From: Chromatiales bacterium
GTDB taxonomy: Bacteria; Pseudomonadota; Gammaproteobacteria; Steroidobacterales; GCA-2729495
DNA length: 64,000 nt
Direction: 5' to 3'
Assembly: GCA_020351875.1 (NCBI GenBank)
Contig: CP070671.1
Span: 1,995,722-2,059,721 of the forward strand
The notes under the pieces were generated by a model, which worked only from the letters and a program-made list of their open reading frames with translations, did not search any database and was not told the DNA's origin. How positions within the stretch are numbered: position 1 is the stretch's first letter; every line of letters starts with the position of its first letter. The position numbers were made by a program, and so were the translations under genes. Positions 26,594-63,021 of this stretch are shown here, in pieces.

Positions 26594-27222
26594 ACGCTGC
26601 GTTTTCCGTCGATTGCCGGCGCTGCAGCCGGCTCGCGGAGTTTCTGGCCGGGGTCCGCGATCGTCATCCGGAATATTTCGCGCGGCCGGTGCCATCTTTC
26701 GGCGATCCGGCAGCCCGACTGCTGATTGTCGGACTCGCACCGGGCATGCACGGCGCGAACGCAACCGGACGGCCATTCACGGGCGACTACGCGGGCTTGC
26801 TGCTCTATCGAACGCTGCACGAATTCAATTTCGCCACGGCCCCGGAGAGTCGTGCCGCAGACGACGGCTTGCAGCTGCTCGACTGCCGGATCACGAACGC
26901 GGTGCGCTGCCTGCCGCCGCAGAACAAACCGACCACCGCCGAGGTGGACACGTGCAACGATTACCTGCAGGCGGAGTTGAGCGGCGACTGCGCGCCGCAA
27001 GTCATCCTCGCGCTCGGCGCAGTGGCCCACCGGGCGGTGCTGCGGGCACTGGGTTGCCGGCTGTCGGCGTATCCCTTCGGCCACGGGGTGTGGCACGAAC
27101 CGGCCGGCGCGGTGCTGGTGGATTCCTACCACTGCAGTCGCTACAACACCCAGACCAGGCGCCTGACAGACACCATGTTCCGGAACGTATTCGGTGAGAT
27201 TCGATCCCGCCTCGACGCGTGA
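26590..27222 (+). CDS. uracil-DNA glycosylase, Fe-S family 4/5 type
   Basis: GTG at 26590 overlaps the DAHP synthase stop (GTGA). CRRCSRL and LLIVGLAPGMHGANATGRPFTGDYAG are typical of family 4/5 UDGs. Confidence 0.8.
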   Translation: MNAAFSVDCRRCSRLAEFLAGVRDRHPEYFARPVPSFGDPAARLLIVGLAPGMHGANATGRPFTGDYAGLLLYRTLHEFNFATAPESRAADDGLQLLDCRITNAVRCLPPQNKPTTAEVDTCNDYLQAELSGDCAPQVILALGAVAHRAVLRALGCRLSAYPFGHGVWHEPAGAVLVDSYHCSRYNTQTRRLTDTMFRNVFGEIRSRLDA

Positions 27223-29060
27223 GCCCGGCGATGGATGACGCGCCGTTCGACGCCAAGCGTTTTCTCGCCACCCTGACGCATCGCCCGGGCGTGTACCGCA
27301 TGCTCGATGCGCAGGGGCAGATCGTTTACGTCGGCAAGGCCCGGGACCTGAAACGCCGGGTCGCCTCCTACTTCGGCGCGAAAGCCCATCACCCCAAGAC
27401 CCAGGCACTGATGCGCGTGGTTGACCGGGTGGAGGTCACGGTCACGGCCAGCGAGCAGGAAGCGCTGCTGCTCGAATACACCCAGATCCAGGCGCACGCG
27501 CCGCGCTACAACGTGCTGTACCGGGACGACAAGAGCTACCCGTACATTCGCGTGACCACCCAGCAGGAATTCCCGCGTTTCGAATTTCATCGCGGTTCAC
27601 GCAAGCCGCCAGGCCGGTACTTCGGCCCGTATCCCAGTGCGGGCAACCTGCGTGAGGTGCTGGGACAGCTGCAGAAGCTGTTCCAGGTCCGCCAGTGCCG
27701 CGACTCCTTTTTCGCCAACCGCTCACGACCTTGTCTGCAGCACCAGATTCAACGGTGCACCGCACCGTGTGTCGGGCTCGTCAGCCAGGCGGACTACGCG
27801 AGGGACGTAGAGAACGCGATGCGCTTTCTGTCAGGGCGCAACGAGCAGGTGCTGGAGGACCTGGTCGACCGCATGGAAGCGGCCTCCGACGCGCTGGATT
27901 TCGAAGGGGCCGCCAGGATTCGGGACCAGATTGCCGCTGTGCGCCAGGTGCAGGCCACGCAGATCGTGGCCGGGAAGCAGGCGCGCGACCTGGACGTCAT
28001 TGGGGCGCACAGCGAAGCCGGGGTGCACTGCGTTGCGCTGGTAATGGTCCGGGCCGGCAGGGTATTGGGTACCCGCGCGCTGTTCCCGAAGGCCGCCGGC
28101 GCGCCCGATGCGGCCGAGCTGCTCGAGGCCTTTATCGCCCAACATTACTTCGAGCAGTCGGCCCCGCCGGAAGTGCTGGTCTCTACCCAGCTCGAGACCG
28201 CTGAACTCCTGGGCGCGGCGCTGACCGAACGCGCCGGCCACCGGGTGGCGATTCACCACCGGGTGCGCGGCACCCGCCGCCAGTGGCTGGAAATGGCGGC
28301 GGACAATGCTCGCGAGAGCGCGCGGCTGCGGCTGGCGGCAAATGCGGGACTCGGCAAACAGTTCACCGCGCTGGGCGAGGTGCTGGACCTGGACGCGACC
28401 CCGCAACGCATTGAGTGCTTCGACATCAGCCATACCGGCGGCGAGGGTACCGTCGCCAGCTGCGTGGTCTGGAACGCGCAGGGCCCGCTGAAGTCGGACT
28501 ACCGCCGTTACAACATTCGCGAAGCGGCCGAGGGCGACGACTATGGCGCGATGACCGAGGTGGTGCGCCGGCGCTACCTGCGTGTGCAGCGCGGCGAGGC
28601 GCCGATGCCGGACCTGATCCTGATCGACGGGGGTCCCGGCCAGCTGCGGGCGGCCAGCGGAGCGCTGGAAGAACTGCAGTTTCCCGAGCTGCCGCTGGTC
28701 GGCGTAGCGAAAGGGGCGGGCCGCAAACCCGGACGCGAGCAACTGTATCGGCCGGGCCAGGACAAGCCATTGCGCCTGGCACCGGACTCGCCGGCGCTGC
28801 ATCTGGTGCAGCAGGTGCGTGACGAGGCGCACCGCTTTGCGATCACCGGCCATCGCCAGCGCCGGGGCCGGGCCCGGCAGGGCTCCGCGCTGGAGCAGAT
28901 CGCCGGGGTCGGGCCGCAACGCCGCCGGGCGCTGTTGCAGCGCTTCGGCGGTCTGCAGGGCCTGAAACGGGCCAATGTAGAAGACCTGGCGAACGTACCC
29001 GGGATCAGCCGCGACCTGGCCCAGCGCATTTTCGATTATTTTCACGGTGGAGCCGCATAG
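27219..29060 (+). CDS. uvrC: excinuclease ABC subunit C
   Basis: GIY-YIG N-terminus PGVYRMLDAQGQIVYVGKARDLKRRV and a C-terminal (HhH)2. The GTG at 27219 overlaps the UDG stop; an alternative ATG lies at 27231 (MDDAPFDAKRFL). Confidence 0.94.
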   Translation: MSPAMDDAPFDAKRFLATLTHRPGVYRMLDAQGQIVYVGKARDLKRRVASYFGAKAHHPKTQALMRVVDRVEVTVTASEQEALLLEYTQIQAHAPRYNVLYRDDKSYPYIRVTTQQEFPRFEFHRGSRKPPGRYFGPYPSAGNLREVLGQLQKLFQVRQCRDSFFANRSRPCLQHQIQRCTAPCVGLVSQADYARDVENAMRFLSGRNEQVLEDLVDRMEAASDALDFEGAARIRDQIAAVRQVQATQIVAGKQARDLDVIGAHSEAGVHCVALVMVRAGRVLGTRALFPKAAGAPDAAELLEAFIAQHYFEQSAPPEVLVSTQLETAELLGAALTERAGHRVAIHHRVRGTRRQWLEMAADNARESARLRLAANAGLGKQFTALGEVLDLDATPQRIECFDISHTGGEGTVASCVVWNAQGPLKSDYRRYNIREAAEGDDYGAMTEVVRRRYLRVQRGEAPMPDLILIDGGPGQLRAASGALEELQFPELPLVGVAKGAGRKPGREQLYRPGQDKPLRLAPDSPALHLVQQVRDEAHRFAITGHRQRRGRARQGSALEQIAGVGPQRRRALLQRFGGLQGLKRANVEDLANVPGISRDLAQRIFDYFHGGAA

Positions 29061-29106
29061 CGCGTTATCATTGCCGGGCTGTTGTTGTTCTGCTGTGCGC
29101 CCGTCC

Positions 29107-29682
29107 ATGTCTCCAGTCACCAACATCGCCACGATGCTGACCTGGCTGCGCATTGCGGCCATCCCGCTGGTGGTGGTGATCTTTTACCTGCCCGTGCCGT
29201 GGGCGCACCCGGGTGCCGCGGCGGTGTTCATCCTGGCCGCCATCACCGACGGGCTCGACGGCTACCTGGCGCGGCGGCTGGAGCTGACGTCTGAGTTCGG
29301 GGCCTTCCTGGACCCGGTGGCCGACAAGCTGATGGTCGTGACCGTGCTGGTGGTCATCCTGCAGGCCGACCCGCGCATTTCCATCGCCGCGATCACCGCG
29401 ATCATCATTGGCCGCGAGGTCATGGTGTCGGCGCTGCGCGAGTGGATGGCGGAGGTTGGCAACCGTCAGCAGGTGGCCGTGACCGGCGTCGCGAAGTTCA
29501 AAACCATTGCGCAGATGTTCGGCCTGTCGCTGATGCTGTGGACACAGGACCTGTTCGGCATTCCGATCTATGCGATCGGCACCGGGCTGATGATCATTGC
29601 CGCGGGGCTCACGCTATGGACCATGGTGGTCTACATCAGGGCCGCCTGGCCTTACCTGGCGGGCCAGGCCGAGCTTCCTTGA
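29107..29682 (+). CDS. pgsA: CDP-diacylglycerol--glycerol-3-phosphate 3-phosphatidyltransferase
   Basis: Start trimmed to the ATG at 29107. CDP-alcohol phosphotransferase motif DGLDGYLARRLELTSEFGAFLDPVADK. Confidence 0.92.
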   Translation: MSPVTNIATMLTWLRIAAIPLVVVIFYLPVPWAHPGAAAVFILAAITDGLDGYLARRLELTSEFGAFLDPVADKLMVVTVLVVILQADPRISIAAITAIIIGREVMVSALREWMAEVGNRQQVAVTGVAKFKTIAQMFGLSLMLWTQDLFGIPIYAIGTGLMIIAAGLTLWTMVVYIRAAWPYLAGQAELP

Positions 29683-29719: not shown

Positions 29720-29795
29720 GCGGGCATAGCTCAGTTGGTAGAGCGATACCTTGCCAAGGTATAGGTCGCCAGTTCGAATCTGGTTGCCCGCTCCA
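29720..29795 (+). tRNA. glyW: tRNA-Gly (anticodon GCC)
   Basis: 76-nt cloverleaf folded by hand: acceptor GCGGGCA/TGCCCGC, anticodon loop CTTGCCAAG, TTCGAAT T-loop, encoded CCA. Near-identical layout to E. coli tRNA-Gly(GCC). Confidence 0.93.
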
Positions 29796-29809
29796 GACAA
29801 GATCGGGAA

Positions 29810-29833
29810 GGGGACGCACAGCGTCCCCTTTTT
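29810..29833 (+). terminator. rho-independent terminator after tRNA-Gly
   Basis: GGGGACGC-ACA-GCGTCCCC stem-loop followed by TTTTT. Confidence 0.85.
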
Positions 29834-29918
29834 CGTGCGTGTAGCCCATGCAGAATCCGCCGGGCAATCGTGCTAGCGTTATACGGATAACGACAGCCGC
29901 TGCAGGGAGAACAGGCCA

Positions 29919-30680
29919 ATGGGCAAAGCGGGCAAACTCATCGTCGGTGTCATCGTCACGCTGATCATCGTGGTCGGCATCGCGCTGACTTTCTTGCTCA
30001 CCAATCTCGACACCATCGTCGAGCGGGCCATCGAAACCGTCGGCAGTGATGTGGCGGGCGTACCGGTCGGTGTGGGCAGCGTGAAGATTTCCCTGGCGGA
30101 AGGCAGCGGCCAGATTAACGGGCTCACCGTCGGCAACCCAAAAGGGTTTCCCCGGGGCAACGCGCTGGAACTGAAGACCATCGCGCTGGCTCTCGACACC
30201 AGCAACCTGAGTGCGGAACTGGTGCGGATCAAGTCCGTATTGGTGGACGGGGCACAGGTCAACGCCATCCAGACCGCCGAGGGAAACAATCTGCAGGGGA
30301 TCCTGGATAACCTGGAATCCGATGCGCCGGCAGAGACGCCCGAAGAGGCCGGCGGGACCGAAACCAAGCTGATCATCGACGACTTCCAGTTCCTGAACGG
30401 TGGCGTGAGTGTCGAAATACCCAAGGTCGGCGAGCGCAACGGCAAGATTCCGGATATCCGCCTGAAAGGCATCGGTGCGAAGAGCAATGGCGCGACGGCC
30501 AGTGAGGCGGCCAAGCAGGTGCTGGAGCCGATCATCCGCCAGTCCATTTCGTCCGTGGCCAGTATCTCCAAGGAAGACCTCGAGAAAATGGGCCGCGAGA
30601 AACTCGATGAGACCCTGGGCGATGGCGCTGACATGGCCACGCGCGAACTCGGCAAGTTCCTGGGCGGCGGCAAGGACTGA
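29919..30680 (+). CDS. N-terminally membrane-anchored protein, function unknown
   Basis: 253-aa ORF with GGGAGA upstream. One N-terminal TM helix (LIVGVIVTLIIVVGIALTFLL), then a soluble Gly/Val-rich domain. The overlapping antisense 280-aa ORF was rejected. Confidence 0.65.
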   Translation: MGKAGKLIVGVIVTLIIVVGIALTFLLTNLDTIVERAIETVGSDVAGVPVGVGSVKISLAEGSGQINGLTVGNPKGFPRGNALELKTIALALDTSNLSAELVRIKSVLVDGAQVNAIQTAEGNNLQGILDNLESDAPAETPEEAGGTETKLIIDDFQFLNGGVSVEIPKVGERNGKIPDIRLKGIGAKSNGATASEAAKQVLEPIIRQSISSVASISKEDLEKMGREKLDETLGDGADMATRELGKFLGGGKD

Positions 30681-30732
30681 CGGGGCCGCTTTCCGGCGCC
30701 CGATGTGATAGATTTCCGCACCCGCCTGCAGG

Positions 30733-30806
30733 GGCTAGGTGGCAGAGTGGTTATGCAGCGGCCTGCAAAGCCGTGTACGCCGGTTCGATTCCGACCCTAG
30801 CCTCCA
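30733..30806 (+). tRNA. cysT: tRNA-Cys (anticodon GCA)
   Basis: 74 nt. Acceptor GGCTAGG/CCTAGCC, anticodon loop CTGCAAA, TTCGATT T-loop, encoded CCA. One C-A mismatch in the T-stem. Confidence 0.88.
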
Positions 30807-30994
30807 TCTTTTCTCTCGACAGATGACCGCGTTCGCCATCGACTCGCGGCGATCCCCAGCACCAGGCGTCTGCCGACGACGGGCATCGCGAGTGCCCTGC
30901 CGTGGGACTCACCGTATATTCTGATTTTCATGTGCTATACGTGCTAAGTGATGGGCACTGACGTGACAGGTCTGCTGCGGCGGCGCGGTGCGTG

Positions 30995-31942
30995 ATGCGG
31001 GATGGTCTGCTCGACCTCTACCACTTTGGGCATTTCGTGCTGGCGGAGGCCGTGGGCCGGGTGCCGTCGGCGGCATTGCGCCGGGCCGCCATCGACGGGC
31101 TGGCGCGCAGCGCCTACCTGCTGTCGCGCGACAAACGTCGGCGGATCGAACGCAACGTCGGACGCGCGTTCGGCGAGCAGGCAGGCCCGGCGCGGACCCG
31201 GCGCATCGCCATCGCCTGCTTTCGCGAATTCTGGCAGGAGATGGTGGAATGGGTGCCAGCCGTGGGCGATCGGCTGCCGGCGGCGGACATCAAAATCCGC
31301 GGCCTGGCACATTTGCAAGGTGCCCTTGCCGCGGGGACAGGCGCGATCCTGTGGGAGAGCAACGGCTTCAGCCGCCGCGTGCAGGCCAAGCGGACCCTGC
31401 ACGCGCACGGCATCCAGCTGCATCAGACCCACGGCGAGACCCATCTCGGCGTCATGTGGACCACCGCGGAACCCGGTACCTGGCTGCGTCGACGTCTGAT
31501 GCGGCCGACCTACGAACGGCGCGAGAGAGCTTTCGTCGCCGAAACCCTGATCATTCCGGTGCACAGTGCGATGGCGGCCGGCCGCGTCTATGTGAAACGC
31601 CTTCGGGAGAACAAGATCCTGTGCATGGCGGGCGATGGCCGCATCGCGCGCAAGCTGTATCCGATCGAGTTCCTCGGCCAGAGCGTCACTTTCGCGCCCG
31701 GAGCGGTCAAATTGGCGCGGCTCGTTGGCGCGCCGCTGTTCCCGGTGTTTTGGGTGCCCGCCGACGATGGACCTCCGGTCCTCGAGATCGATCCACCGAT
31801 CGTTCCCGACCCCGTGGGCGACGTGGATGCCCAGGTAGTAGACTGCCTGCAACGGTTCGCGAATGCGCTCCAGGCACGCGTTATGCGGTGGCCCGAAGCC
31901 TACCGCAACTGGCATATTGTCGACGACAGCGCCGGAGACTGA
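30995..31942 (+). CDS. LpxL/HtrB-like lipid A biosynthesis acyltransferase family protein
   Basis: About 315 aa. The overall pattern (GAILWESNGF..., ILCMAGDG...FLGQSVTFAPGAVKLARLVGAPLFPVF) resembles the Lip_A_acyltrans family. I did not find a clear HX4D motif. Confidence 0.55.
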   Translation: MRDGLLDLYHFGHFVLAEAVGRVPSAALRRAAIDGLARSAYLLSRDKRRRIERNVGRAFGEQAGPARTRRIAIACFREFWQEMVEWVPAVGDRLPAADIKIRGLAHLQGALAAGTGAILWESNGFSRRVQAKRTLHAHGIQLHQTHGETHLGVMWTTAEPGTWLRRRLMRPTYERRERAFVAETLIIPVHSAMAAGRVYVKRLRENKILCMAGDGRIARKLYPIEFLGQSVTFAPGAVKLARLVGAPLFPVFWVPADDGPPVLEIDPPIVPDPVGDVDAQVVDCLQRFANALQARVMRWPEAYRNWHIVDDSAGD

Positions 31943-32006
31943 CGCCAACGATGGCGGCGCACCGTCCAACAACAACTTTGCATAGACCGGCAGGGCCTTG
32001 CGCACG

Positions 32007-32741
32007 ATGAGCCGCGACGACATCTTCGACGACAGCAGGCCGCGCGGCAGTGATTTCACATTCAACGCCGAGGTCGCCGCCGTCTTCGACAACATGATCG
32101 CACGCAGCGTGCCGTTCTACCAGGAACAGCAGCGCATGATCGTCGAGGTGGTGAAGCGCTATTGGCGGCCGGGCACTGACGTTTACGATCTCGGCTGCGC
32201 CACGGGCACGACGCTGATCAACCTGGGGCATGCACTCGAAGGGCCCGGGCGCCTGGTCGGCTACGACAACTCGGAGGCGATGCTGCAGCAGGCGCGCGGT
32301 GCGGTGGCCACCGAGGGCCTCGCCAATCGCGTCGAGCTGCGGCACGGCGACCTCGATCAGCACCCCGAAGAGCTGGCGTTGGACGGTGCCGGCGCTGTAC
32401 TGCTGTGCTGGACCTTGCAATTCGTCCGGCCGCTGCAGCGCGAGGCGCTGATTCGCCGAGTCCACGACTCGCTCGCAGACGGCGGCGTGCTGGTGGTGAC
32501 GGAGAAAGTGCTCAGCAATGCCCGCGCCCTCGACCGCGACTTCATCGACTTCTACTATGCCTTTAAGGCGCGGTCCGGCTATACGAAGACGGAGATCCAC
32601 AAGAAGCGCGAGGCGCTGGAGAACGTGCTGGTGCCTTACCGCATCGACGAGAACAAGAAGATGTTCCGTCGTAACGGCTTCGGTGCTGTCGACAGTTTTT
32701 TCCAGTGGTTCAATTTCGTCGGCTTTCTGTGCGTGAAGTAG
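32007..32741 (+). CDS. cmoA: carboxy-S-adenosyl-L-methionine synthase-like protein
   Basis: Collinear with E. coli CmoA as I recall it (FTFNAEVAAVFDNMIARSVPFYQEQ..VYDLGCATG..LQFV..). The ATG at 32007 is preferred over the TTG at 31998. Confidence 0.8.
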   Translation: MSRDDIFDDSRPRGSDFTFNAEVAAVFDNMIARSVPFYQEQQRMIVEVVKRYWRPGTDVYDLGCATGTTLINLGHALEGPGRLVGYDNSEAMLQQARGAVATEGLANRVELRHGDLDQHPEELALDGAGAVLLCWTLQFVRPLQREALIRRVHDSLADGGVLVVTEKVLSNARALDRDFIDFYYAFKARSGYTKTEIHKKREALENVLVPYRIDENKKMFRRNGFGAVDSFFQWFNFVGFLCVK

Positions 32742-32768
32742 CCGGCGCCAGGGCGGAAGCGAACGACG

Positions 32769-33557
32769 ATGGCCTCCAGGATCGCCGACCGGTTGCGTGC
32801 CGTCGCGGCAGTGCTGCTGCCGCTCGGCGTACGGCAGTGGCTGCGCGCGCAGCACCGCCGCTTTGGACTGCATCGCAAGCCGGTCGGCACGGTCGCGTTC
32901 GGCGATCTGCGGCGGCTGACGCCGATCAGCCGGGTGTTCGGTCTCGATCGTGGCTTGCCGATCATCGACCGTTACTACATTGATAAATTCCTCGCCAGTT
33001 GCGCCGACGACATTAGCGGCCGGGTCCTGGAGATGGGCGACGCCACCTACACCTGCCAGTTCGGTGGCGACCGGGTGACCCGGAGCGACGTGCTGCACTA
33101 TGTCGCCGGCAACCCAGAAGCGACCATCGTCGGCGATCTGACCGCAGCCGACCACATCCCGTCGGACAGCTTCGACTGCATCATCCTGACCCAGACGCTG
33201 CAGATGATCTTGGACGTCCGCGCGGCCCTGCACCACCTGCACCGCATATTGAAGCCCGGCGGCGTGTTGTTGGCGACATCACACGGGATCAGCCGCATCG
33301 CGCGGCGCGAAGGCATCGACCCCTGGGGTGAATACTGGCACTTCACCGCGCAGTCGACCCGGCATCTGTTCGGCGCCCTGTTCCCCGCCGACCACGTGCG
33401 CATCGTCACCTATGGGAATGTGTTGTCGGCGGCCGCGTCGCTGTATGGCCTGACCGCGGCGGATCTGACACGGGAAGAGCTGGACCATTGCGATTCCGAT
33501 TTCGAGGTGATCGTTGCGGTGCGGGCGCAGAAGCCGCTGGTCGGCGTCGCGCGTTGA
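32769..33557 (+). CDS. class I SAM-dependent methyltransferase (polysaccharide/LPS-locus type), not CmoB
   Basis: PISRVFGLDRGLPIIDRYYIDKFL...GRVLEMGD and ILKPGGVLL motifs. Confidence 0.7.
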   Translation: MASRIADRLRAVAAVLLPLGVRQWLRAQHRRFGLHRKPVGTVAFGDLRRLTPISRVFGLDRGLPIIDRYYIDKFLASCADDISGRVLEMGDATYTCQFGGDRVTRSDVLHYVAGNPEATIVGDLTAADHIPSDSFDCIILTQTLQMILDVRAALHHLHRILKPGGVLLATSHGISRIARREGIDPWGEYWHFTAQSTRHLFGALFPADHVRIVTYGNVLSAAASLYGLTAADLTREELDHCDSDFEVIVAVRAQKPLVGVAR

Positions 33558-33571
33558 CCGCATGCTCAGGA

Positions 33572-34666
33572 TCAGAAATAGATGTTGAGCTGCAGAAAAT
33601 ACAGGTCCGAATTCTGTTGATCGTTCTGGGAAATGCCGTCCCGGAAACGCGCCCCGGCGCGAAGCTGGGTGTAGGAGAACGGGAAGTATTCGTACACAAC
33701 GCTGACCCGGGTCTGCTCGTCGTCTGACACATCATCATCCGGGTCGAAGCCGCCGTAGGTCAGCTTCAGGTTGTGGCCCTTGGTAATCAGCCAGTTGCCT
33801 TCGGCGAAACCCACCCACTGCTTACGACCGCTCGGTCCGAGGCTGTCATCGTCAATGTAGTCCACTTCCCCGAGCCAGCTGATCGGGCCGGTGCGCAAGC
33901 CGGCGAACCCGCCGGTTACAAAACGGTCGCCCGCGTCGGCGTCGTTGTAATTCACGCTGACGCCAAGCTGCCAGATGTTCTGTACGTAACTGGCCAGCAA
34001 GCTGTACTGCTTGCCGTCATCGGTTTCAGCGCCCCCGGCGCCGCCGTTGGAAATCGCCAACTGGACTGACGCGGGACCCAGTTCGACACCGGCTTCCACA
34101 CCGTCGTCCGGAGAGTTCATGTTGATGCCGACCACCGAACGAATGAACTCCGTGTCGTCCTCGAGGCGGAGGCCGAAGGGCAGGTAGATCTGTCCGGCTT
34201 TCACATAGGCCTTGCGGTCCCAGAAATAGAGCAATGCGAAGGCTTCACGATTGTCCGACGATGGCGATACCTGCTGGTCCAGGTAAAACGTGAGGCGATC
34301 CTTGAGCAGCGGGACCGCGACATACAGGCGACCTTCCTGCACATCGAACTCGGTGTCATTGCCCTGGTTCGGCACTCGCGTATGGGTGAAGTCACCCCGA
34401 AAGTTGGCGCCGATGGTCAGGTACTCCATGACCTCGCCGTCCCAGAAGCCGTCTTCAGGGACGCGAACCGGCATGGTGACCTGGCCAAAGGCATCGCCAT
34501 AGGCGGTGCGCATGCCACCGCCCGTCTGATTCACGTGGCACGCGGAGCACTTGTTGCCGGTCATGACCGCAAAATAGGGTTCCGCCCCGGCGGGTGCCGA
34601 AAAAGCAGCCACCAGGAACAGCGCAGCTGACAGCAGGCAAAGGCGGGGGCAGGCGACGGCAGTCAT
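33572..34666 (-). CDS. outer-membrane beta-barrel with an N-terminal CXXCH haem motif (fused cytochrome-porin, Cyc2-like architecture)
   Basis: Start trimmed to the ATG at 34666, with GGAGGAG 10 nt upstream. Signal peptide, then CSACH at 34535..34549 (residues 40-44). About 320 aa of alternating beta-strand sequence ends in ..LQLNIYF, a C-terminal aromatic OMP signature. Confidence 0.65.
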   Translation of the reverse strand: MTAVACPRLCLLSAALFLVAAFSAPAGAEPYFAVMTGNKCSACHVNQTGGGMRTAYGDAFGQVTMPVRVPEDGFWDGEVMEYLTIGANFRGDFTHTRVPNQGNDTEFDVQEGRLYVAVPLLKDRLTFYLDQQVSPSSDNREAFALLYFWDRKAYVKAGQIYLPFGLRLEDDTEFIRSVVGINMNSPDDGVEAGVELGPASVQLAISNGGAGGAETDDGKQYSLLASYVQNIWQLGVSVNYNDADAGDRFVTGGFAGLRTGPISWLGEVDYIDDDSLGPSGRKQWVGFAEGNWLITKGHNLKLTYGGFDPDDDVSDDEQTRVSVVYEYFPFSYTQLRAGARFRDGISQNDQQNSDLYFLQLNIYF

Positions 34667-34700
34667 GCGTTTGCAACTCCTCCGGACTAATTGCTTACGG

Positions 34701-35903
34701 TCACGGTCTCGCGCCCGCATCGATCCAGGCGCGAATCGCGTCGATCGTGGACTGCGGCAACGGCCCGCCGCCGAGGGGCATCGGGAAGCCGATGACCTGG
34801 TTACCCTCGAGTTTGCGAATGATGTAGCTGTCGTCGGCGTTGAAGGGCTCAACGCGCAGCAACGGCGGTTCACGCTCGCTGGTGACATTAACCAGGCTGG
34901 CCAGGCTGGCCGCGGCGGAACTTAGATCCTGACCCGCCGGCAGGCTCGGCCCCTGCGGGCCTTCGTGGCAACCAGCCGTCGCACAGGTCGGTGTGAAGAC
35001 ATTGTCCTGGATCGAAGCCAGCGTTGGCAGCACTGCTGCCAACCGGAACCCGCTGGTGAAGTCGCCGCCCGCCGTGCCGTCTTCATCACCGTCCAGGAGT
35101 ACGCCGGTGCTGGACGCCAGCGCGGTAGCCCCCGTGCCGACCAGCCGGAGCTCGTAGTCGTCCGCGGCAAACGGCACGCCGGCCATGTCCAGCACGAGCA
35201 GGCGGTCGTTACCGGGCGACAGCGCTACGCTGGCCGGCGTAATCGTGACTTCGTTACCGTCGGCAAAGCTGCCGTCACCACCACTGCGCTGCAGGACCAC
35301 CGTCGCATTGCTGACCAGTGTGCCGTCCATGTCCTGTGTGAAGGTCGCCGTAATCTCGACAGGCAGCTGGTCCAGCACCGCGCCGTCTGCCGGATCGGTG
35401 GCCACCACCGTGGGTGGCCCGCCGCTGCCGGCACCGGGGAGGGCGCCGTCGGTGATCCACTGGCGGATCACGTCCGTGGTGGACTGCGGCACGAAAGGCG
35501 GCCCACTCAACGGCATACGCTGGCCGCCTGCCGCCGTGCCCTCGAGCTTCTGGATCAGGTAACTGGCGTCCGGGTCACCCGGTGCAACGCGCAGCAAAGC
35601 CGGCACCTGGTTACTCGCGATAGTCACGAGCAGTGCGTAGCTGGCGTATTCGCTGAGGTCCAGGCCTTCCGGCGCCGCGGCGCCCACATGGCACCCGGCG
35701 ACCGCGCAGGTGGGCGTAAACACATTCGCCTGGATCGAGTCGAAATTGGGGCCCAGGGGCACGTTGCCGCCACCTTCGGACAACGGTCGCCCGTTCTCGT
35801 CCAGTCCGTCACCGCTGCCTGCTGTGCAAGCAGCCAGCCCCAGCCAAGCCAGCGCGGCCGCGAACAACGCGCGCCATTGTGTCCGGTCGCCAGTCCGCTT
35901 CAT
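34701..35903 (-). CDS. lipoprotein with two duplicated C-X4-CH (putative haem c) modules flanking an Ig-like domain
   Basis: Lipobox LAAC. Module 1 is SIQANVFTPTCAVAGCHVG..., module 2 is SIQDNVFTPTCATAGCHEG..., and each ends in ..WI(T/D)(D/A)GA. The middle part, PPTVVATDPADGAVL...ITATFTQDMD, is bacterial Ig-like (Big_5/SbsA type). Confidence 0.7.
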   Translation of the reverse strand: MKRTGDRTQWRALFAAALAWLGLAACTAGSGDGLDENGRPLSEGGGNVPLGPNFDSIQANVFTPTCAVAGCHVGAAAPEGLDLSEYASYALLVTIASNQVPALLRVAPGDPDASYLIQKLEGTAAGGQRMPLSGPPFVPQSTTDVIRQWITDGALPGAGSGGPPTVVATDPADGAVLDQLPVEITATFTQDMDGTLVSNATVVLQRSGGDGSFADGNEVTITPASVALSPGNDRLLVLDMAGVPFAADDYELRLVGTGATALASSTGVLLDGDEDGTAGGDFTSGFRLAAVLPTLASIQDNVFTPTCATAGCHEGPQGPSLPAGQDLSSAAASLASLVNVTSEREPPLLRVEPFNADDSYIIRKLEGNQVIGFPMPLGGGPLPQSTIDAIRAWIDAGARP

Positions 35904-35987
35904 CCACGTCCCCCGAGTGGAAGCATTGCCCCGTTAGTCAGCGCCGGCGTCGCTTTGGTTCCCGCCGTCCGCCGGGCTCATTCTGGG

Positions 35988-36689
35988 CTATCTGCGGCAA
36001 GAATTCCTGTGTCGCCGCCGCGTCAGCCCGAAAGTGATCGTTAGCGCACACAAAGTTATTCCACTCAACGTGCTGCTGCCGCCGCGTCCCCCGCCGAGGC
36101 TCGACACCGGAACGATGGTCAGGTTACCGGGATCAAAACCGAGATCGGTGATGTATTCCTCACCAAAGTCCACCTCAACCAGCGGGTTCAGGCTCGGGAC
36201 GTTGTTCGAGTTCTGGATCCGGCCCGTGCCGTTGGCGTCGAGTTCCAGCAGCGCCGGGTTAAAGCGGCCGGTGTCGACTTCCCGCCCGTTGAACGTGTAG
36301 ACGATGCCCCCGCCCGCAAGCTCTGCGACCTGCAGCCCGTCGGTCAGTACCGCGTTGGGACTGACCGTGAAACTCAACGAGCTGCCCTGGGCGTAAAACT
36401 CGGTACCCGTCATCGAGCGCTGCAGGGCGAAGGAGGGAAAGCCCGACGGCGTGCCGGGTTCCAGCGTGCCCGAGACGTCGTAGTCGACCGTGGTGATGGC
36501 CGGGTTGTCGTAGGCCATGCCGGCGACGAGCTCCTCGCCCACGAGGATTCGGAACGAGAACGTGGTGACGTCGCTGAACACAGGCATGGCCTGGAAGCTC
36601 GGGCTCGCGAAACGGATCTGGAATGACTGGGCCACAACGGGCGACGACAAGGCTGCCAGGACCAGGACAATCAACAGGCGTACGTTCAT
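35988..36689 (-). CDS. secreted protein with a Gly-rich/TM/Arg-rich C-terminal sorting tag (GlyGly-CTERM-like)
   Basis: Signal peptide MNVRLLIVLVLAALSSPVVAQ. C-terminus SSLGGGRGGSSTLSGITLCALTITFGLTRRRHR. I recognise no domain in the body. Confidence 0.6.
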   Translation of the reverse strand: MNVRLLIVLVLAALSSPVVAQSFQIRFASPSFQAMPVFSDVTTFSFRILVGEELVAGMAYDNPAITTVDYDVSGTLEPGTPSGFPSFALQRSMTGTEFYAQGSSLSFTVSPNAVLTDGLQVAELAGGGIVYTFNGREVDTGRFNPALLELDANGTGRIQNSNNVPSLNPLVEVDFGEEYITDLGFDPGNLTIVPVSSLGGGRGGSSTLSGITLCALTITFGLTRRRHRNSCRR

Positions 36690-36760
36690 CGGTAAGAACT
36701 CCGGGAGTTCGGTGCGCGCCGGGCATGCGTTGGCAGCCTAACATCCCGATGCGGTTAGCC

Positions 36761-36790
36761 AAATGAAAAGAGCCGCCTGGTGGCGGCTCT
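36761..36790 (-). terminator. rho-independent terminator after the VWA gene
   Basis: Minus strand AGAGCCGCC-ACCA-GGCGGCUCU followed by UUUCAUUU. Confidence 0.7.
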
Positions 36791-36815
36791 GATCAAACGG
36801 TCGGCAGGCTCGGTG

Positions 36816-37775
36816 TCAGGTCGTACGGCGACGCCAGAAGGCGAGACCACCCAGCGCCGACAGGAACAACGGCAGCGCGCCCGGGATCGGGATTATTGCC
36901 AAGCCGAGTTCCACCTCGAGCTTATCTTCCAGCGTGGTTTCGAATTCAGCAAAATTCTCCGCCGTGACGAAGAAGCCGTCCGGGTCACCGGCTACCAGCG
37001 TGGCCAGGAAATCGGGATCCACGTCGCCGACGCCAATGGCATTGACCGTGACGCCGGCCGCTCGCGCGGCATCCGCTTCATCGTAAGCGAGCTGGCGATC
37101 GAGTATATTCTCCGGCGATGTCGGATCGACGTCCAGGCCATCCGAGTTGGGTTCCGTCGGCTCGCCATCCGTGGATATATCGATCACGAGCGCGTCGCCA
37201 TCGATGCCGTTGTTCAAAATCCCTGCGACCTCGCCTTCTTCGACATTGCAGAAGTCAAGTATTGGATTGATCTGCGGAAACATTTCCGAGCCCGGGCAGC
37301 CCGCCGTTCCACCGCTGGTGGCAATGTTTATCGCTTCGGATGTGTTGGTTTTTCCGCCCGGCTGCGGCAGCGTCCCGAACAAGACTCCGAAGTCCGCCGC
37401 TTCCTGGTCATTATTGAGTACGGTCCAGTCGAGGAAACTCGTCACGACGATGTCGAAAGTGACCGTTTCGAGAACGTTGTCGTCTTGATCCGAAATGGGA
37501 ACTGATCCTGCGACCGAGGAAAATACATAGGCCGCGACGGCGACCTGGTCGTACGGGCCTTTCGATACGATGTTCGTAAAAAAGTCGTTCTGGAAGATGT
37601 TCTGGTATGCGCCGATCTGCAGACCCCAGTCGGGACCGGACTCATTACCCCGCGGACCGGAGATACTGCTCGACCCGTCAATAATCAGGGCGAGTTCCAG
37701 CAGCGCAGCGTGCGACGCTGATGCGGAGAACATCAGGAGGGTGGCAACGACGGCCGGGATTACACGTTGACGCAT
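36816..37775 (-). CDS. secreted von Willebrand factor A-like protein with a VPLPA/PEP-CTERM-type sorting tag
   Basis: GGAGG RBS and a signal peptide. VWA-like blocks LALIIDGSSSI, GGKTNTSEAI, VIDISTDGEPT and GVTVNAIGVG. C-terminus IPIPGALPLFLSALGGLAFWRRRTT. Confidence 0.7.
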   Translation of the reverse strand: MRQRVIPAVVATLLMFSASASHAALLELALIIDGSSSISGPRGNESGPDWGLQIGAYQNIFQNDFFTNIVSKGPYDQVAVAAYVFSSVAGSVPISDQDDNVLETVTFDIVVTSFLDWTVLNNDQEAADFGVLFGTLPQPGGKTNTSEAINIATSGGTAGCPGSEMFPQINPILDFCNVEEGEVAGILNNGIDGDALVIDISTDGEPTEPNSDGLDVDPTSPENILDRQLAYDEADAARAAGVTVNAIGVGDVDPDFLATLVAGDPDGFFVTAENFAEFETTLEDKLEVELGLAIIPIPGALPLFLSALGGLAFWRRRTT

Positions 37776-37953
37776 GACTCGAACCTCCAGGTTCGTTTCT
37801 TATTCATTGCGTCAACGGTGCTTGAGCATTGAAAAGCAACAATTCTGGTGGCAGGGCGCAAGCGGGGCCGCCAATGTGGCCATTCCGGGGCCGGGCGTGG
37901 ATTATGTTCACTGTTCGACGCCGACAGGGCAGGGCAGGACGAAAGGCAGGCAG

Positions 37954-38427
37954 ATGGCTGATTCGGATCCGGACATACCGGCGGCAGGCACAAACAGCGC
38001 AATGGCCAAGTGGCTCAAGGCGCTGGTGCTGGCCTACTGGCTGGTCGGCACCCTGGACGTCGCCGCATCGCTGTTTCTGACGGATGCGCTGCCGGCCGGA
38101 TTGCGCGCATGGCTGGAGTCCCGATCCCAGGCGCCGGACCTGGAGGAGTGGGTGAAACGCGGCTGGATGATCGCGCTCCTCGCGGCCCTGATCGGCGGCA
38201 GCCTCGGTATCCTGCGGCAGGAGAACTGGGGTCGGTGGGTCTTCGCCGGGGCGAATGCGGCGATGTTCGCGTCTTACCCGCTGCTCGACGCGATGATTTA
38301 CACGTGGTTCGGCGGGCTGTTCGCCGACCTGTCCATGGTGCTGACCGGGGCCATTCTGCTGGCCTGTTTCGCGCCGGGGTCAGGCAAGCTCTTCAACCGC
38401 AGCCCAGGCGGACACCCCGGGTACTGA
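37954..38427 (+). CDS. multi-pass membrane protein, function unknown
   Basis: ORF 37774..38427 trimmed to the ATG at 37954. Three or four hydrophobic helices. An alternative ATG lies at 38002. Confidence 0.5.
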   Translation: MADSDPDIPAAGTNSAMAKWLKALVLAYWLVGTLDVAASLFLTDALPAGLRAWLESRSQAPDLEEWVKRGWMIALLAALIGGSLGILRQENWGRWVFAGANAAMFASYPLLDAMIYTWFGGLFADLSMVLTGAILLACFAPGSGKLFNRSPGGHPGY

Positions 38428-38479
38428 CGGGGCAGGCTGAAGGTCGATCACGAGACCAACCCCCCCGCCGCTCATCGCC

Positions 38480-38485
38480 TACAAT
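38480..38485 (+). promoter_or_regulatory. possible -10 box (TACAAT) for tRNA-Leu
   Basis: TACAAT lies 8 nt upstream of the tRNA 5' end. No convincing -35 element. Confidence 0.3.
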
Positions 38486-38493
38486 GCTCGCGG

Positions 38494-38807
38494 GCCCGGG
38501 TGGCGAAACTGGTAGACGCAAGGGACTTGATGCTTGAGCACCCGGTCGGAAAGCGGCCGGTGTGAATGGAGTCAAATTCGGGGAAACCTCAGCGCGTAAC
38601 GGCGGTGGCAATCCCGAGCTAAGCCACGGCATAGCCGTGGAAAGTGTAGAGACTTGACGGCTCCCGCCTAAGTGCCGGACAGCAACGGCATAGGGTGAAG
38701 AGAAAGTCCAGACCCCGAATGCCTGCGGGCAGCGGCGAAAGTCGTAGCGGGTACGAAAATCCCTCGGGGGCAACCCCGTGCCGGTTCGAATCCGGCCCCG
38801 GGCACCA
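38494..38807 (+). tRNA. leuZ: tRNA-Leu (anticodon UAA) interrupted by a group I intron; exons 38494..38528 and 38756..38807
   Basis: The joined exons give an 87-nt class II tRNA. Acceptor GCCCGGG/CCCGGGC, D-arm GCG..AAACTGGTAGA..CGC, anticodon stem AGGGA/TCCCT with loop CUUAAAA, long variable arm CGGGGGCAACCCCGTG, TTCGAAT T-loop, CCA. Confidence 0.9.
38529..38755 (+). ncRNA. group I self-splicing intron (cyanobacterial tRNA-Leu, IC3-like), 227 nt, no ORF
   Basis: Inserted between U34 and A35. P1 is CUU|GA-UGC-UUGAG with a U-G pair at the 5' splice site, and the intron ends in G. The blocks GGGGAAACCU, GGCAAUCCCGAGCUAAGCC, GUAGAGACUUGACGG, AGGGUGAAGAGAAAGUCCA and GCGAAAG parallel the Anabaena pre-tRNA-Leu intron as I remember it. 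Confidence 0.85.
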
Positions 38808-38861
38808 ATCGGCCGCGTCGCGCATCGCGCGTTCCGCGGGCGTTGTGAAAATGGATGCAAC

Positions 38862-39404
38862 ATGACTAGCTTGGGTACACGCCTGGCCCGCGCCGCCACG
38901 CGGTGGCGGCTGGTGGATTCAAAGTTCCTCCACAACAAGCTTCAGTACGTGCTGCAGACACTCCTGGCTGTGATCACCATCATGGTCGTATTACTGGCGC
39001 TCGACCTGGTGCAGCAGACTGTGCTGATCGCGTCGCTTGGCGCGAGCACCTTTATCGTCTTCGCCATGCCGCGCAGTTATCCATCGCGCCCCCGGTACAT
39101 GATCGGGGGTTATTGCGTGGGCACCGTCGTCGGGTGCCTGCTGTCGTTCCTGACCTCAGCCCTGGCCGCTCAGACAGGGTTGGAACTACGCACCTCGCAG
39201 ATCATTTGCGGTGCACTGGCCACCGGGCTCGCGTTTTTCCTGATGGTGTTGACGGACACCGAACATCCGCCGGCCGCGGCCCTGGCGCTCGGCTACGTTC
39301 TGAACGAATGGCAGTTCGACACGGTGGTTGTAGTGCTCGGCGGCGTCACCGCGCTGGCGGTAGTCAAGCAACTGTTCCGGGAGCGGTTGATGGACCTAGT
39401 CTGA
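38862..39404 (+). CDS. HPP-family membrane protein
   Basis: Start trimmed to the ATG at 38862, downstream of the tRNA. Four TM helices and the eponymous motif in TDTEHPPAAALALG. Confidence 0.75.
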   Translation: MTSLGTRLARAATRWRLVDSKFLHNKLQYVLQTLLAVITIMVVLLALDLVQQTVLIASLGASTFIVFAMPRSYPSRPRYMIGGYCVGTVVGCLLSFLTSALAAQTGLELRTSQIICGALATGLAFFLMVLTDTEHPPAAALALGYVLNEWQFDTVVVVLGGVTALAVVKQLFRERLMDLV

Positions 39405-39443: not shown

Positions 39444-40361
39444 TCAGGAGGCAATTGCCTGCGGACCGAGCACGCCGGTGTCGGCGTGATCATCCTCTTC
39501 GTCTGCGCGCGTGGGCAGGCGGGCACCCAGCGGTTCGCAGTAACGCAACCGGTAGTGGCCGATCTGCAGCACGTCGCCGTCCTTCAACGCGTAGCGTTGC
39601 ACGCCGTTGCCATTCACGAAGGTGCCGTTGGTACTGCGCAGGTCCACCGCATAAATTCCATCGGCGCGGCCGACCAGCAGGGCGTGATGGCGACTGATGA
39701 AAAGACTGTCCAGCACCAGGTCATTCTGGGAATGGCGACCGATCATCACGCGCGGCTGATCGATCACCAGGCGATCCATGATCTTTCCCTGCAGCGTAAT
39801 TTCGAGCGCCGGTCGCAGCACGCTATCGTCCGCGTCGACCTCCGGCGCCGCATCGGGCTCGTCGAGGGAGTAACGCGACCGCGTGAGTTCCTGCAGCTCG
39901 CTGAGACCGGCAGAATCGAGGATCCGATGCAGATTGGGGGAGCCCGTCAGCACGAAACACAACGAGGCCGGTTCCTGGGGAGACTGCAGGACGAGGGCAC
40001 GGACCGTGTCCAGTACGTAGGGCCCGAAGTCCTGGGCGTCTTCCAGCACGATGACCGTCCGCCGCCCCTGTGCGGCCTCGTGGCAGGCAAACACGCCAAG
40101 GAGTTTTTGCAGCTCTTCGGTCGAGGATTGAAAGGGCTCGAAGCCCAGTTGTTCGAGCACCCGCTCCAGGAAGGCATGGCTGTCGCGGGTCGGGGCCGTC
40201 AAGTGGGCCGCGTGACTGACCTCCTGGTCCTGCAGGAACCGCCGCAGGAGCAGTTGCTTGCCGCTGTCCGGACCGCCGATGACCACGGCGACGGGCAGTC
40301 CGCGGTCCAGTGACTGTTGCAGGTAGTCTTGTGCGCCTAGAATCCGGGGAGGCTGGGGCAT
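39444..40361 (-). CDS. P-loop ATPase (ExeA/AAA_22-like) fused to a C-terminal FHA domain
   Basis: Walker A-like VIGGPDSGKQ and Walker B VIVLEDAQ. The FHA pattern is RVMIGRHSQNDLVLDSLFISRHHALLV...DLRSTNGTFVNG...LKDGDVLQIG. Confidence 0.7.
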   Translation of the reverse strand: MPQPPRILGAQDYLQQSLDRGLPVAVVIGGPDSGKQLLLRRFLQDQEVSHAAHLTAPTRDSHAFLERVLEQLGFEPFQSSTEELQKLLGVFACHEAAQGRRTVIVLEDAQDFGPYVLDTVRALVLQSPQEPASLCFVLTGSPNLHRILDSAGLSELQELTRSRYSLDEPDAAPEVDADDSVLRPALEITLQGKIMDRLVIDQPRVMIGRHSQNDLVLDSLFISRHHALLVGRADGIYAVDLRSTNGTFVNGNGVQRYALKDGDVLQIGHYRLRYCEPLGARLPTRADEEDDHADTGVLGPQAIAS

Positions 40362-40492: not shown

Positions 40493-41131
40493 ATGATTAA
40501 TTTGTCTAATGACGCGATGCTGGTAGCCGATGAACTGACGCTGTGGCGCGGTGAGCTTTGCCTGTTCGATGGCCTGAGCGTGGCCGTGGAGCCCGGGCAG
40601 GCGCTGATGGTGCGTGGCCCGAACGGGGCGGGCAAGACCACGCTGCTGCGCGTGCTGTGCGGCCTCACGCGTCCGGAAGCGGGGCAAGTCCACTGGTGCG
40701 GCGAGCCGGTGGAGACCAGCGGCGAGCAGTTCGGCCGCGCCCTGGCCTATTGCGGCCACCAGACCGGACTGAAGGCTGACCTGAGCCTCGCGGGCAACCT
40801 GGCCTTTGCCGCGCGACTGGCAGGGCTCCACGGCGAGCCCTGGCGCGACATCATGGCCCAGCTGGGCCTCGCCAGCCGGGCCGACCTGCTCGTCCGCCAC
40901 CTGTCCGCGGGCCAGCAGCGGCGCGGGGCGCTGGTGCGGGCACTCATGGTGCCGGCGCAGCTGTGGGTCTTCGACGAACCATTCACGAACCTCGATGCAG
41001 CCGGCCGCGACTGGCTGGAAGCCCGGCTGGACGCCCACCTGGACCGTGGCGGGATGGCGATCATCGCGGCGCATCATGAACTGCGGCCCCGCCCGGGCCT
41101 GCGGACGCTGGAACTGGCGGAGGCCCGGTAA
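40493..41131 (+). CDS. ccmA: haem exporter ATP-binding protein
   Basis: Walker A GPNGAGKTT and ABC signature LSAGQQRR. First gene of the ccm operon. An alternative ATG lies at 40517. Confidence 0.9.
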   Translation: MINLSNDAMLVADELTLWRGELCLFDGLSVAVEPGQALMVRGPNGAGKTTLLRVLCGLTRPEAGQVHWCGEPVETSGEQFGRALAYCGHQTGLKADLSLAGNLAFAARLAGLHGEPWRDIMAQLGLASRADLLVRHLSAGQQRRGALVRALMVPAQLWVFDEPFTNLDAAGRDWLEARLDAHLDRGGMAIIAAHHELRPRPGLRTLELAEAR

Positions 41132-41133
41132 CC

Positions 41134-41802
41134 ATGGTCACGGTGGTTTCTGCCATCCTGCGGCGCGACCTGGAGCTCGGCTTCCGGCGTTGGGGCGACG
41201 TGGCCAGCCCGCTGATGTTCTTTGCGATCGTCACGGCGTTGTTCCCACTGGCCCTGTCGCCGGCCCGTGAAGTGTTGCAGGGGCTCGGCCCGGGGGTGCT
41301 GTGGATCGCTGCGCTGCTGGCCATGTTGCTGTCCCTGAACGCGCTGTTCCGGCAGGACCTGGAGGACGGCAGCATGGAACAGCTGGTCGTGGGCCCGCAC
41401 CCGTTGCCACTGATCATGCTGGCCAAAGCGCTGGCCCACTGGTTGCTGAGCGGTTTGCCGCTGGTCCTGCTGGCGCCGCTTCTGGCAGTCACCTACCATT
41501 TGCCGGCCGAGGGTGTGCGGGCCCTGTGTGTGACCTTGCTCCTTGGGACGCCGACCCTGAGCCTGCTAGGTTCAGTCGGCGCCGCGCTCACGGCTGGCGT
41601 GCGGCAGTCGGGTGGCTTGCTGGCCCTGCTGATACTGCCGCTGTGCCTGCCGGTGCTGATGTTCGGTAGCCGCGCTACCGCGCTGGCCGCCGAGGGTGAG
41701 GTCGTGACCGGGCCGCTGTACCTGCTCGGCGCACTGCTGGCTTTGGCCGTGACCCTCGTGCCCGCCACGTCGAGCGCCGCCATTCGAATCAGCCTGGATT
41801 GA
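41134..41802 (+). CDS. ccmB: haem exporter permease
   Basis: 222-aa polytopic membrane protein directly after ccmA, CcmB-like throughout. Confidence 0.9.
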   Translation: MVTVVSAILRRDLELGFRRWGDVASPLMFFAIVTALFPLALSPAREVLQGLGPGVLWIAALLAMLLSLNALFRQDLEDGSMEQLVVGPHPLPLIMLAKALAHWLLSGLPLVLLAPLLAVTYHLPAEGVRALCVTLLLGTPTLSLLGSVGAALTAGVRQSGGLLALLILPLCLPVLMFGSRATALAAEGEVVTGPLYLLGALLALAVTLVPATSSAAIRISLD

Positions 41803-62932: not shown

Positions 62933-62976
62933 CGGAACTGGTCGGTTTCGCGACACAAATGCCAACGGTTAGAATG

Positions 62977-63005
62977 GCGCCTTCAGCGCGGGGCGCTGAG
63001 GGTGC
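62977..63005 (+). terminator. possible terminator hairpin after the fadB-like gene
   Basis: A roughly 13-bp stem centred on CAGCGC-GGG-GCGCTG with two G-U pairs. The downstream T-tract (CTTTAATT) is weak. Confidence 0.35.
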
Positions 63006-63021
63006 GCAACAGCTTTAATTA

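Follow-up and report, generated by a model that had tools for sequence, protein, structure and literature searches.

A tRNA-Leu(UAA) gene split by an IC3-type group I intron in a gammaproteobacterial locus and overlooked by standard annotation

The tRNA-Leu(UAA) is the sole reader of UUA codons. At default annotation settings, the genome studied here would seem to be without this tRNA, two spurious ORFs being called in its place. The window (the whole 64-kb stretch of DNA that was analysed) was proposed in an initial annotation, made from the sequence letters, to contain the gene after all, split by a 227-nt group I intron of the "cyanobacterial/plastid type", an arrangement that was considered unusual for a proteobacterium. 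The locus raises the questions of whether the interruption is a genuine intron, whether the intron is likely to be functional and from which lineage it derives. The intron of the cyanobacterial and chloroplast tRNA-Leu(UAA), with which it was compared, was described in reports from 1990, including Kuhsel et al. 1990, as cited in PMC3984707.

With introns allowed, ARAGORN reads a single split gene, the parts of which are as follows.

38494-38807, forward strand: tRNA-Leu(UAA) gene, intron-split; ARAGORN call tRNA-Leu(taa) [38494,38807] i(36,227).
38494-38528, forward strand: 5′ exon, comprising the acceptor 5′ strand, the D arm, the anticodon stem 5′ strand and C32-U33-U34 (ARAGORN -i, joined-exon fold, direct reading).
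38529-38755, forward strand: group I intron of IC3 type, 227 nts, ORF-less (RF00028 match, core model R1, covariation-supported structure).
38756-38807, forward strand: 3′ exon, comprising A35-A36, the remaining anticodon loop and stem, the long variable arm, the T arm, the acceptor 3′ strand and CCA (ARAGORN -i, joined-exon fold).

Read directly, the 5′ exon ends in ...AGGGACUU and the 3′ exon starts with AAAAUCCCU, the first and last bases of the intron being G38529 and G38755. The break point lies after C32-U33-U34, i.e., between U34 and A35, which is the classical insertion site recognized in the initial annotation and agrees with the ARAGORN position i(36,227). When 38494-38528 is joined to 38756-38807, the product is an 87-nt class II tRNA-Leu(UAA), which has a long variable arm, the anticodon stem AGGGA/UCCCU and an encoded CCA. 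The anticodon loop CUUAAAA is restored in this product, and the predicted ligated junction reads ...GGGACUU/AAAAUCCC... (the slash marking the splice point). The joined 87-nt sequence is called tRNA-Leu(taa) by ARAGORN without any intron option, as expected for the complete tRNA described initially. Identical split boundaries are found in 87 homologous tRNA-Leu(UAA) genes among the matches listed from a genome scan described below. The tRNA-Leu(UAA) gene is a genuine intron-split gene, with the intron length and the exon ends (38528 and 38756) first given for it, and, as judged from the sequence, its intron is probably functional.

The structure of the intron was drawn by hand as the canonical P1-P9 arrangement with the P7 pseudoknot (61 pairs) and was tested on an alignment of 51 sequences, made of the window and 50 short Leu introns. 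The following elements were assigned.

38526-38538, forward strand: P1, CUU/GA (38526-38530) with the internal guide UUGAG (38534-38538); hand-drawn structure and local fold.
38539-38564, forward strand: P2 hairpin with a GAAA-type loop; local fold, compensatory changes at 10 of 10 pairs across the family.
38568-38573, forward strand: P3 5′ strand GGAGUC; partner 38659-38664, 5 of 6 pairs covarying and 100% of cells paired.
38578-38617, forward strand: P4 (38578-38583 / 38612-38617) around P5 and the P5 extension; hand-drawn structure and local fold.
38618-38645, forward strand: P6/P6a hairpin, its loop being the insertion site of HNH ORFs in relatives; hand-drawn structure and local fold.
38649-38654, forward strand: P7 5′ strand G(A)GACU with a bulged A; partner AGUCC at 38705-38709, nearly invariant in the 51 sequences.
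38659-38664, forward strand: P3 3′ strand GGCUCC; covariation on the alignment.
38665-38697, forward strand: P8/P8a hairpin; compensatory changes at 7 of 8 pairs.
38705-38709, forward strand: P7 3′ strand AGUCC, in a pseudoknot with P3; covariation alignment.
38713-38751, forward strand: P9 three-way junction, with P9 (38713-38716 / 38747-38751), P9a (38720-38731) and P9b (38733-38744); hand-drawn structure and local fold.
38755, forward strand: terminal guanosine (omega G) at the 3′ splice site.

Every helix from P1 to P9, including P1, P3 and P7, can be formed by the window sequence in the hand-drawn structure and local fold. The P1 helix places the wobble pair U38528.G38536 at the 5′ splice site, and a guanosine lies just before the 3′ splice site; both features had been read from the sequence initially and are invariant across the family, as U.G and as G, in 51 of the 51 aligned sequences. 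The P3-P9 fold is likewise borne out, the conserved P3-P8 and P4-P6 domains and the P3/P7 pseudoknot being present with covariation. P7, which by analogy with solved IC3 introns would be the guanosine-binding helix, is nearly invariant and hence uninformative for covariation, yet fully paired. The presence of P2, a short P5 without P5abc, P6a, P8 and, at P9, a GNRA-looped three-way junction (the P9b cap is a GAAA tetraloop) corresponds to the architecture of subgroup IC3. This assignment was made by comparing the helix map with the consensus structure given in the Williams seed alignment, in which the classical members are listed as IC3. The intron is a subgroup-IC3-type group I ribozyme by its fold and conservation. 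The core blocks quoted in the initial annotation are all found in the sequence, and architecture and core match those of IC3 tRNA introns.

In the hand-drawn structure, 96.0% of the 3089 cells are paired, compared with 30-45% when the partners are slid by 1-3 columns. Changes on both sides occur at 38 of the 61 pairs, with covariation at almost every pair of P3 and P2, and none of 500 shuffles reaches any of the observed measures. The RNAalifold consensus recovered P2, P3, P4, P5, P6/6a, P8 and P9, and 37 of its 56 pairs show compensatory changes. This program cannot draw pseudoknots, and the pairing that it proposed between the exon GGACU and the P7 3′ strand was rejected. The alignment contains 72 invariant columns; the window keeps all 72 of those that are invariant in the other 50 sequences and matches 108 of the 110 columns conserved at ≥90%.

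A covariance model of the core (R1, from P3 to the P7 3′ strand, 140 positions) was built from 30 relatives, solely other Leu.3Ug members, with the window left out. Over the 64-kb window, R1 gives a single match, at 38564-38712, with 128.5 bits and an E-value of 3.4e-27, covering model positions 1-140 of 140 with zero non-canonical pairs. The general Rfam model RF00028 (Intron_gpI), in a sensitive scan of 38400-38900 (501 nts), matches over its full length (model positions 1-253) with 37.0 bits and an E-value of 6.2e-8. Because the RF00028 match is full-length, the R1 match is single and the 72 invariant positions are all kept, chance is excluded. The Intron_gpI match foreseen in the initial annotation was therefore obtained, significant by its E-value and by the family-specific model, although its 37.0 bits remain below the curated gathering score of 50 bits. 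As stated in the preprint of Williams 2020 (bioRxiv 10.1101/2020.01.27.920355), the RF00028 seed is without bacterial members, the Rfam model under-scores bacterial tRNA introns and a cut-off of 18-20 bits was used for tRNA introns. Since the seed is non-bacterial and R1 reaches 128.5 bits, the sub-threshold score is a property of the model, not of the sequence.

The split gene is missed by standard tools. Over the window, default ARAGORN calls only tRNA-Gly(GCC) and tRNA-Cys(GCA), and at gathering thresholds neither the Rfam tRNA model nor RF00028 reports the split tRNA-Leu. Two ORFs cross the gene, 38010-38537 on the forward strand and 38393-38938 on the reverse strand. Neither has a Pfam match and neither is called in independent assemblies of the same locus, in keeping with their initial description as spurious protein ORFs covering an RNA. 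The main value of the finding is annotational: a split tRNA-Leu gene overlooked by standard annotation tools. At 62086-63754 on the reverse strand, the intron mode of ARAGORN also gave a tRNA-Asn(gtt) interrupted by a 1578-nt "intron"; this is a false call, with no tRNA or intron in a sensitive Rfam scan of 61900-64000.

The distribution of the intron was investigated by scanning species-representative genomes with a pattern that runs from the 3′ portion of the intron into the Leu 3′ exon, AGTCCAGAC...GCGAAAG...GAAAATCC, and that was chosen on purpose to disfavour the P7-flank sequence of cyanobacteria. At least 120 loci matched, 87 of which are tRNA-Leu(UAA) genes split at exactly CTT/...G/AAAA according to ARAGORN -i; the remaining loci among the matches listed were mostly called Ser or Phe tRNAs by the same program. 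The hosts of these at least 87 split genes are non-cyanobacterial and include Acidobacteriota, Alpha- and Gammaproteobacteria, Bacteroidota and others. The textbook "cyanobacterial/plastid" site of the tRNA-Leu intron is occupied in many other phyla, which bears on the age and origin of the intron.

Among the matches listed, the closest split genes are all gammaproteobacterial, with 74-81% identity over the whole 314 nts and ~81% for the top relative. They belong to Ca. Rariloculaceae (L047), Ca. Azotimanducaceae (L054), Peristeroidobacter soli (L110), Steroidobacter flavus (L028), Ca. Foliamicus (L107, whose intron is also 227 nts long), Salinisphaera sp. PC39 (L103), Steroidobacteraceae MAGs and several unclassified Gammaproteobacteria. 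All six named relatives share with the window the P3 type (GGAGUC/GGCUCC and variants) and the anticodon stem, and several of them also share the uvrC-pgsA-Gly-Cys and/or ccmAB neighbourhood. They differ in the lengths of the peripheral loops and in the spacing of the tRNA cluster, which in the window is lengthened by additional genes over 0.9 kb and 7.7 kb. The features around the split gene are listed below.

27219-29060, forward strand: uvrC, upstream of the tRNA cluster.
29047-29682, forward strand: pgsA, upstream of the tRNA cluster.
29720-29795, forward strand: tRNA-Gly(GCC) (default ARAGORN, Rfam).
29919-30680: DUF748/AsmA-like ORF, between tRNA-Gly and tRNA-Cys.
30733-30806, forward strand: tRNA-Cys(GCA) (default ARAGORN, Rfam).
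38480-38485, forward strand: TACAAT, possible -10 element, 8 nts upstream of the tRNA 5′ end (direct reading).
38862-39404: HPP membrane protein gene, downstream of the split tRNA-Leu.
39444-40361, reverse strand: gene for a 305-aa protein with AAA_22 (N-terminal) and FHA/YscD-like (C-terminal) domains, between the HPP gene and ccmA.
40493-41131, forward strand: ccmA, conserved downstream neighbour of the split tRNA-Leu in relatives.
41134-41802, forward strand: ccmB, conserved downstream neighbour of the split tRNA-Leu in relatives.

The order uvrC-pgsA-tRNAGly-tRNACys ... tRNALeu is gammaproteobacterial in style, as had been suggested. Together with this synteny, the assignment of the host to its class draws on UvrC and PgsA, which show 48-56% identity to gammaproteobacterial loci and 30-42% to alphaproteobacterial ones, within a limited set of loci. 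A tight cluster of tRNA-Gly, tRNA-Cys and intron-bearing tRNA-Leu is found in five gammaproteobacterial loci among the matches listed (L010, L025, L026, L103 and L108), four of which have uvrC-pgsA directly upstream; ccmA, mostly with ccmB, directly follows the split gene in seven of the loci listed. Because the same cluster is found in named relatives, the intron-bearing "leuZ" behind pgsA is a recurrent gammaproteobacterial arrangement and not an oddity of the window. The claim that a proteobacterial Leu(UAA) intron at the leuZ position is unusual is not supported, given this recurrence and the at least 87 non-cyanobacterial cases, and such introns are already reported in the literature, namely in Williams 2020 (bioRxiv 10.1101/2020.01.27.920355) and, for the Beggiatoaceae, Flood et al. 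2016 (PMC4853749). Similarly, the view that proteobacterial tRNA introns occur mainly in tRNA-Arg and tRNA-Ile corresponds to the literature of the 1990s, not to the present picture. The intron is genuine yet ordinary, the same intron at the same site being common in many non-cyanobacterial bacteria.

In the window, the Gly-Cys gap measures 937 bp (29796-30732) and the Cys-Leu gap 7.7 kb (30807-38493), compared with 46-483 bp in relatives. Most ORFs of the 7.7-kb spacer lack Pfam matches; Big_5 and VWA/DUF1194 proteins are also encoded there. The GC content of the stretched spacers (0.62-0.64) is slightly below that of the flanks (0.67-0.69). A search around the 7.7-kb spacer for att-like tRNA-fragment repeats, as expected of an integrated island, returned only T-loop similarity, with no integrase. 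The AAA_22-FHA gene is missing from the interval between tRNA-Leu and ccmA in relatives. From its sequence, the TACAAT at 38480-38485 is a possible -10 promoter element; a consensus promoter scan gave no complete -35/-10 site for the split tRNA-Leu, and a consensus terminator scan gave one terminator-like match, on the wrong strand and within the intron.

To place the intron among its relatives, a neighbour-joining tree and pairwise identities were computed from 197 intron columns that align well. In the tree, the window is placed in a gammaproteobacterial cluster of 10 members with a bootstrap of 39%, deeper nodes being poorly supported; at this value, vertical inheritance and transfer within the class may not be cleanly separable. 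The window intron shares 75-79% identity with the members of the gammaproteobacterial cluster. For proteobacterial Ser, Phe, Arg and Thr introns the values are 63-74%, for the GC-rich Williams seed Ncf2.Leu.3Ug 69.5% and for Sel1.Leu.3Ug, the cyanobacterial seed, 59%, the last figure being indicative, as this was the only cyanobacterial sequence compared. The initial label "cyanobacterial/plastid type" thus holds for the insertion site and the subgroup but not for the sequence, which belongs with the gammaproteobacterial cluster.

In the same tree (loci L001-L120), introns in genes that ARAGORN calls Ser or Phe are interspersed among Leu(UAA) introns from hosts of their own phylum (Alphaproteobacteria, Acidobacteriota) and do not group by tRNA type. 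This intermixing hints at a spread between tRNA genes within lineages.

Among the matches listed, long introns (680-850 nts) contain ORFs of ~155-215 aa with the motif LELDHINGD...NLRLLCPNCH, located in the P6a loop. Pfam HNH and HNH_3 were above threshold in two of the three proteins tested, those of Salinisphaera (L103) and L026. The HNH ORF is antisense to the tRNA in six loci, L103 (6041-6820, Salinisphaera sp. PC39), L026, L043, L108, L019 and L048, and sense in L020 and L045. In contrast to L103, L026, L108 and L043, where an antisense HNH ORF of ~155-185 aa occupies P6a, the window intron is without such an ORF. No intron-encoded homing endonuclease was found for it, the 227 nts holding no ORF of their own and the crossing ORFs having no Pfam match. 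The copy in the window is presumably immobile, and an HNH homing endonuclease is likely to have been the original means of spread.

The interpretation that we favour, with a probability of close to nine in ten, is that the window contains a leuZ-equivalent tRNA-Leu(UAA) gene with an ORF-less, self-splicing intron of IC3 type, which belongs to a resident gammaproteobacterial lineage and was most likely inherited with the gene. The splicing chemistry would be that of the family, the steps being those of two well-studied members of IC3, the introns of Anabaena tRNA-Leu and of Azoarcus tRNA-Ile (PMC3984707, PMC13168695). The 314-nt precursor would be transcribed, perhaps from a promoter with the -10 element TACAAT, and the intron would fold into the P1-P9 ribozyme, with P1 presenting the U34.G wobble pair. 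By analogy, an external guanosine in P7 would attack the 5′ splice site, leading to cleavage after U34. G38755 would then take the place of this guanosine in P7, and the free 3′-OH of U34 would attack the 3′ splice site, joining the exons and restoring the loop CUUAAAA. Normal end-processing would come last.

Since the intron comes from a gammaproteobacterial Leu(UAA) lineage in a conserved chromosomal context, inheritance with the gene is most likely, rather than a recent gain from cyanobacteria. Had the intron been acquired recently, by horizontal transfer from a cyanobacterium or a plastid-like source, it would descend directly from the "ancient" cyanobacterial tRNA-Leu intron. Such an origin could account for the common insertion site, the IC3 architecture and several core blocks. 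It is nonetheless very improbable, as the identity to Sel1.Leu.3Ug (a single cyanobacterial sequence) lies far from the 75-79% reached with gammaproteobacterial Leu introns and even below that of the Ser, Phe, Arg and Thr introns, the chromosomal context of the split gene is conserved in several gammaproteobacterial genomes, and the GC content of the intron (61%) is near that of the host (about 64-65%). Equally slim is the chance that the intron is a decaying, non-splicing relic in a tRNA-Leu(UAA) pseudogene backed by another gene elsewhere. The RF00028 score under the gathering threshold, the absent homing endonuclease ORF and a view limited to a 64-kb window of the genome would be compatible with such decay, whereas the intactness of all 72 family-invariant positions, of all helices including P1, P3 and P7 and of the terminal G argues against it, as do exons that form a canonical tRNA. 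Moreover, a low Rfam score is expected from a seed without bacterial sequences, as described in the preprint (Williams 2020), and the family model scores the same core at 128.5 bits.

Somewhat less improbable, though still unlikely, is that the intron is currently mobile, by means of an endonuclease acting in trans or of reverse splicing, and recently invaded an intron-less leuZ allele within the Gammaproteobacteria. Close introns at the same site do encode HNH ORFs, for example in Salinisphaera sp. PC39, and the grouping of introns by host phylum across tRNA types suggests some mobility. However, the window copy is without an ORF of its own, the top relative among the matches listed is only ~81% identical, so that no recent donor is seen, and the independent assemblies all carry the intron, with no intron-less allele observed. 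Inheritance with the gene in a resident gammaproteobacterial lineage remains the preferred explanation. A further-reaching proposal, which we advance tentatively and consider doubtful, is that the Leu(UAA) intron was already resident in the uvrC-pgsA-tRNAGly-tRNACys-tRNALeu-ccm locus before several gammaproteobacterial orders diverged (Steroidobacter, Salinisphaera, a Woeseia-like lineage and the uncultured one of the window), forming an old vertical lineage parallel to the cyanobacterial one. If true, the "ancient cyanobacterial" tRNA-Leu intron would represent a single branch within a bacterial family of much greater age and breadth, and antisense-encoded HNH endonucleases would be the agents of its occasional spread.

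A tRNA-Leu intron was reportedly described in a subsurface gamma-proteobacterium by Vepritskiy et al. in 2002. Such an intron is also present in Maribeggiatoa (strain BOGUAY) and Ca. Thiomargarita nelsonii (Flood et al. 2016, PMC4853749, citing MacGregor et al. 2013). The window resembles these Beggiatoaceae in its gammaproteobacterial host, in the tRNA concerned and in having been missed by annotation pipelines for the same reason; it differs in host family, and the likeness is one of description, not of sequence. In the survey of Williams 2020 (bioRxiv 10.1101/2020.01.27.920355), 80,413 bacterial genomes were reported to yield 5,292 split tRNA genes, with Leu.3Ug as one of four classical types, its C(-1) variant being exclusive to Proteobacteria. 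The window intron conforms to this class by its insertion between positions 34 and 35 with the loop CUUAAAA restored on joining, its CUU/intron ending in g/AAAA, its U(-1), its terminal G and its 69.5% identity to seed Ncf2.Leu.3Ug; its sequence and host lineage are not named in that text.

Compared with the cyanobacterial tRNA-Leu(UAA) intron, the window intron occupies the same gene and the same U34/A35 site, uses a UUGAG-type guide with CUU in P1 and has the same IC3 P1-P9 layout, terminal G and GAAA-capped P9 hairpin. It differs in its proteobacterial host, in sequence (59% identity to one representative over alignable columns) and in P3, P2 and the J8/7-P7 3′ flank (for example, AGUCCAGAC in the window versus AGUCCAAUU). 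The Azoarcus tRNA-Ile(CAU) and alphaproteobacterial tRNA-Arg introns (seeds Aol6.Ile2.5Ug and Rur1.Arg.5Ug) have the same compact IC3 core, with 58-67% identity over alignable columns, but interrupt other tRNAs, their insertion site in the anticodon loop lying two nucleotides downstream. The predicted splicing of the window intron is best modelled, in mechanism and in structure, on these introns (Azoarcus structures in PMC13168695). This kind of intron is already covered by published surveys, and the individual sequence is an addition to a known class; the window provides one more example, to which the scan adds dozens, and is not new in principle.

The locus is also represented in independent sequence data. 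The exact CcmB protein is present on Logan contigs of several sequencing runs, and the locus on these metagenome contigs is 99.2-99.9% identical to that of the window. Runs with this organism include SRR32197426, SRR34093450 and SRR32197394. Within the split gene, the sole difference between the window and three independent metagenome assemblies is at 38754, which is C in the window and A in the assemblies. This base directly precedes the terminal G and is A, C or U across the intron family.
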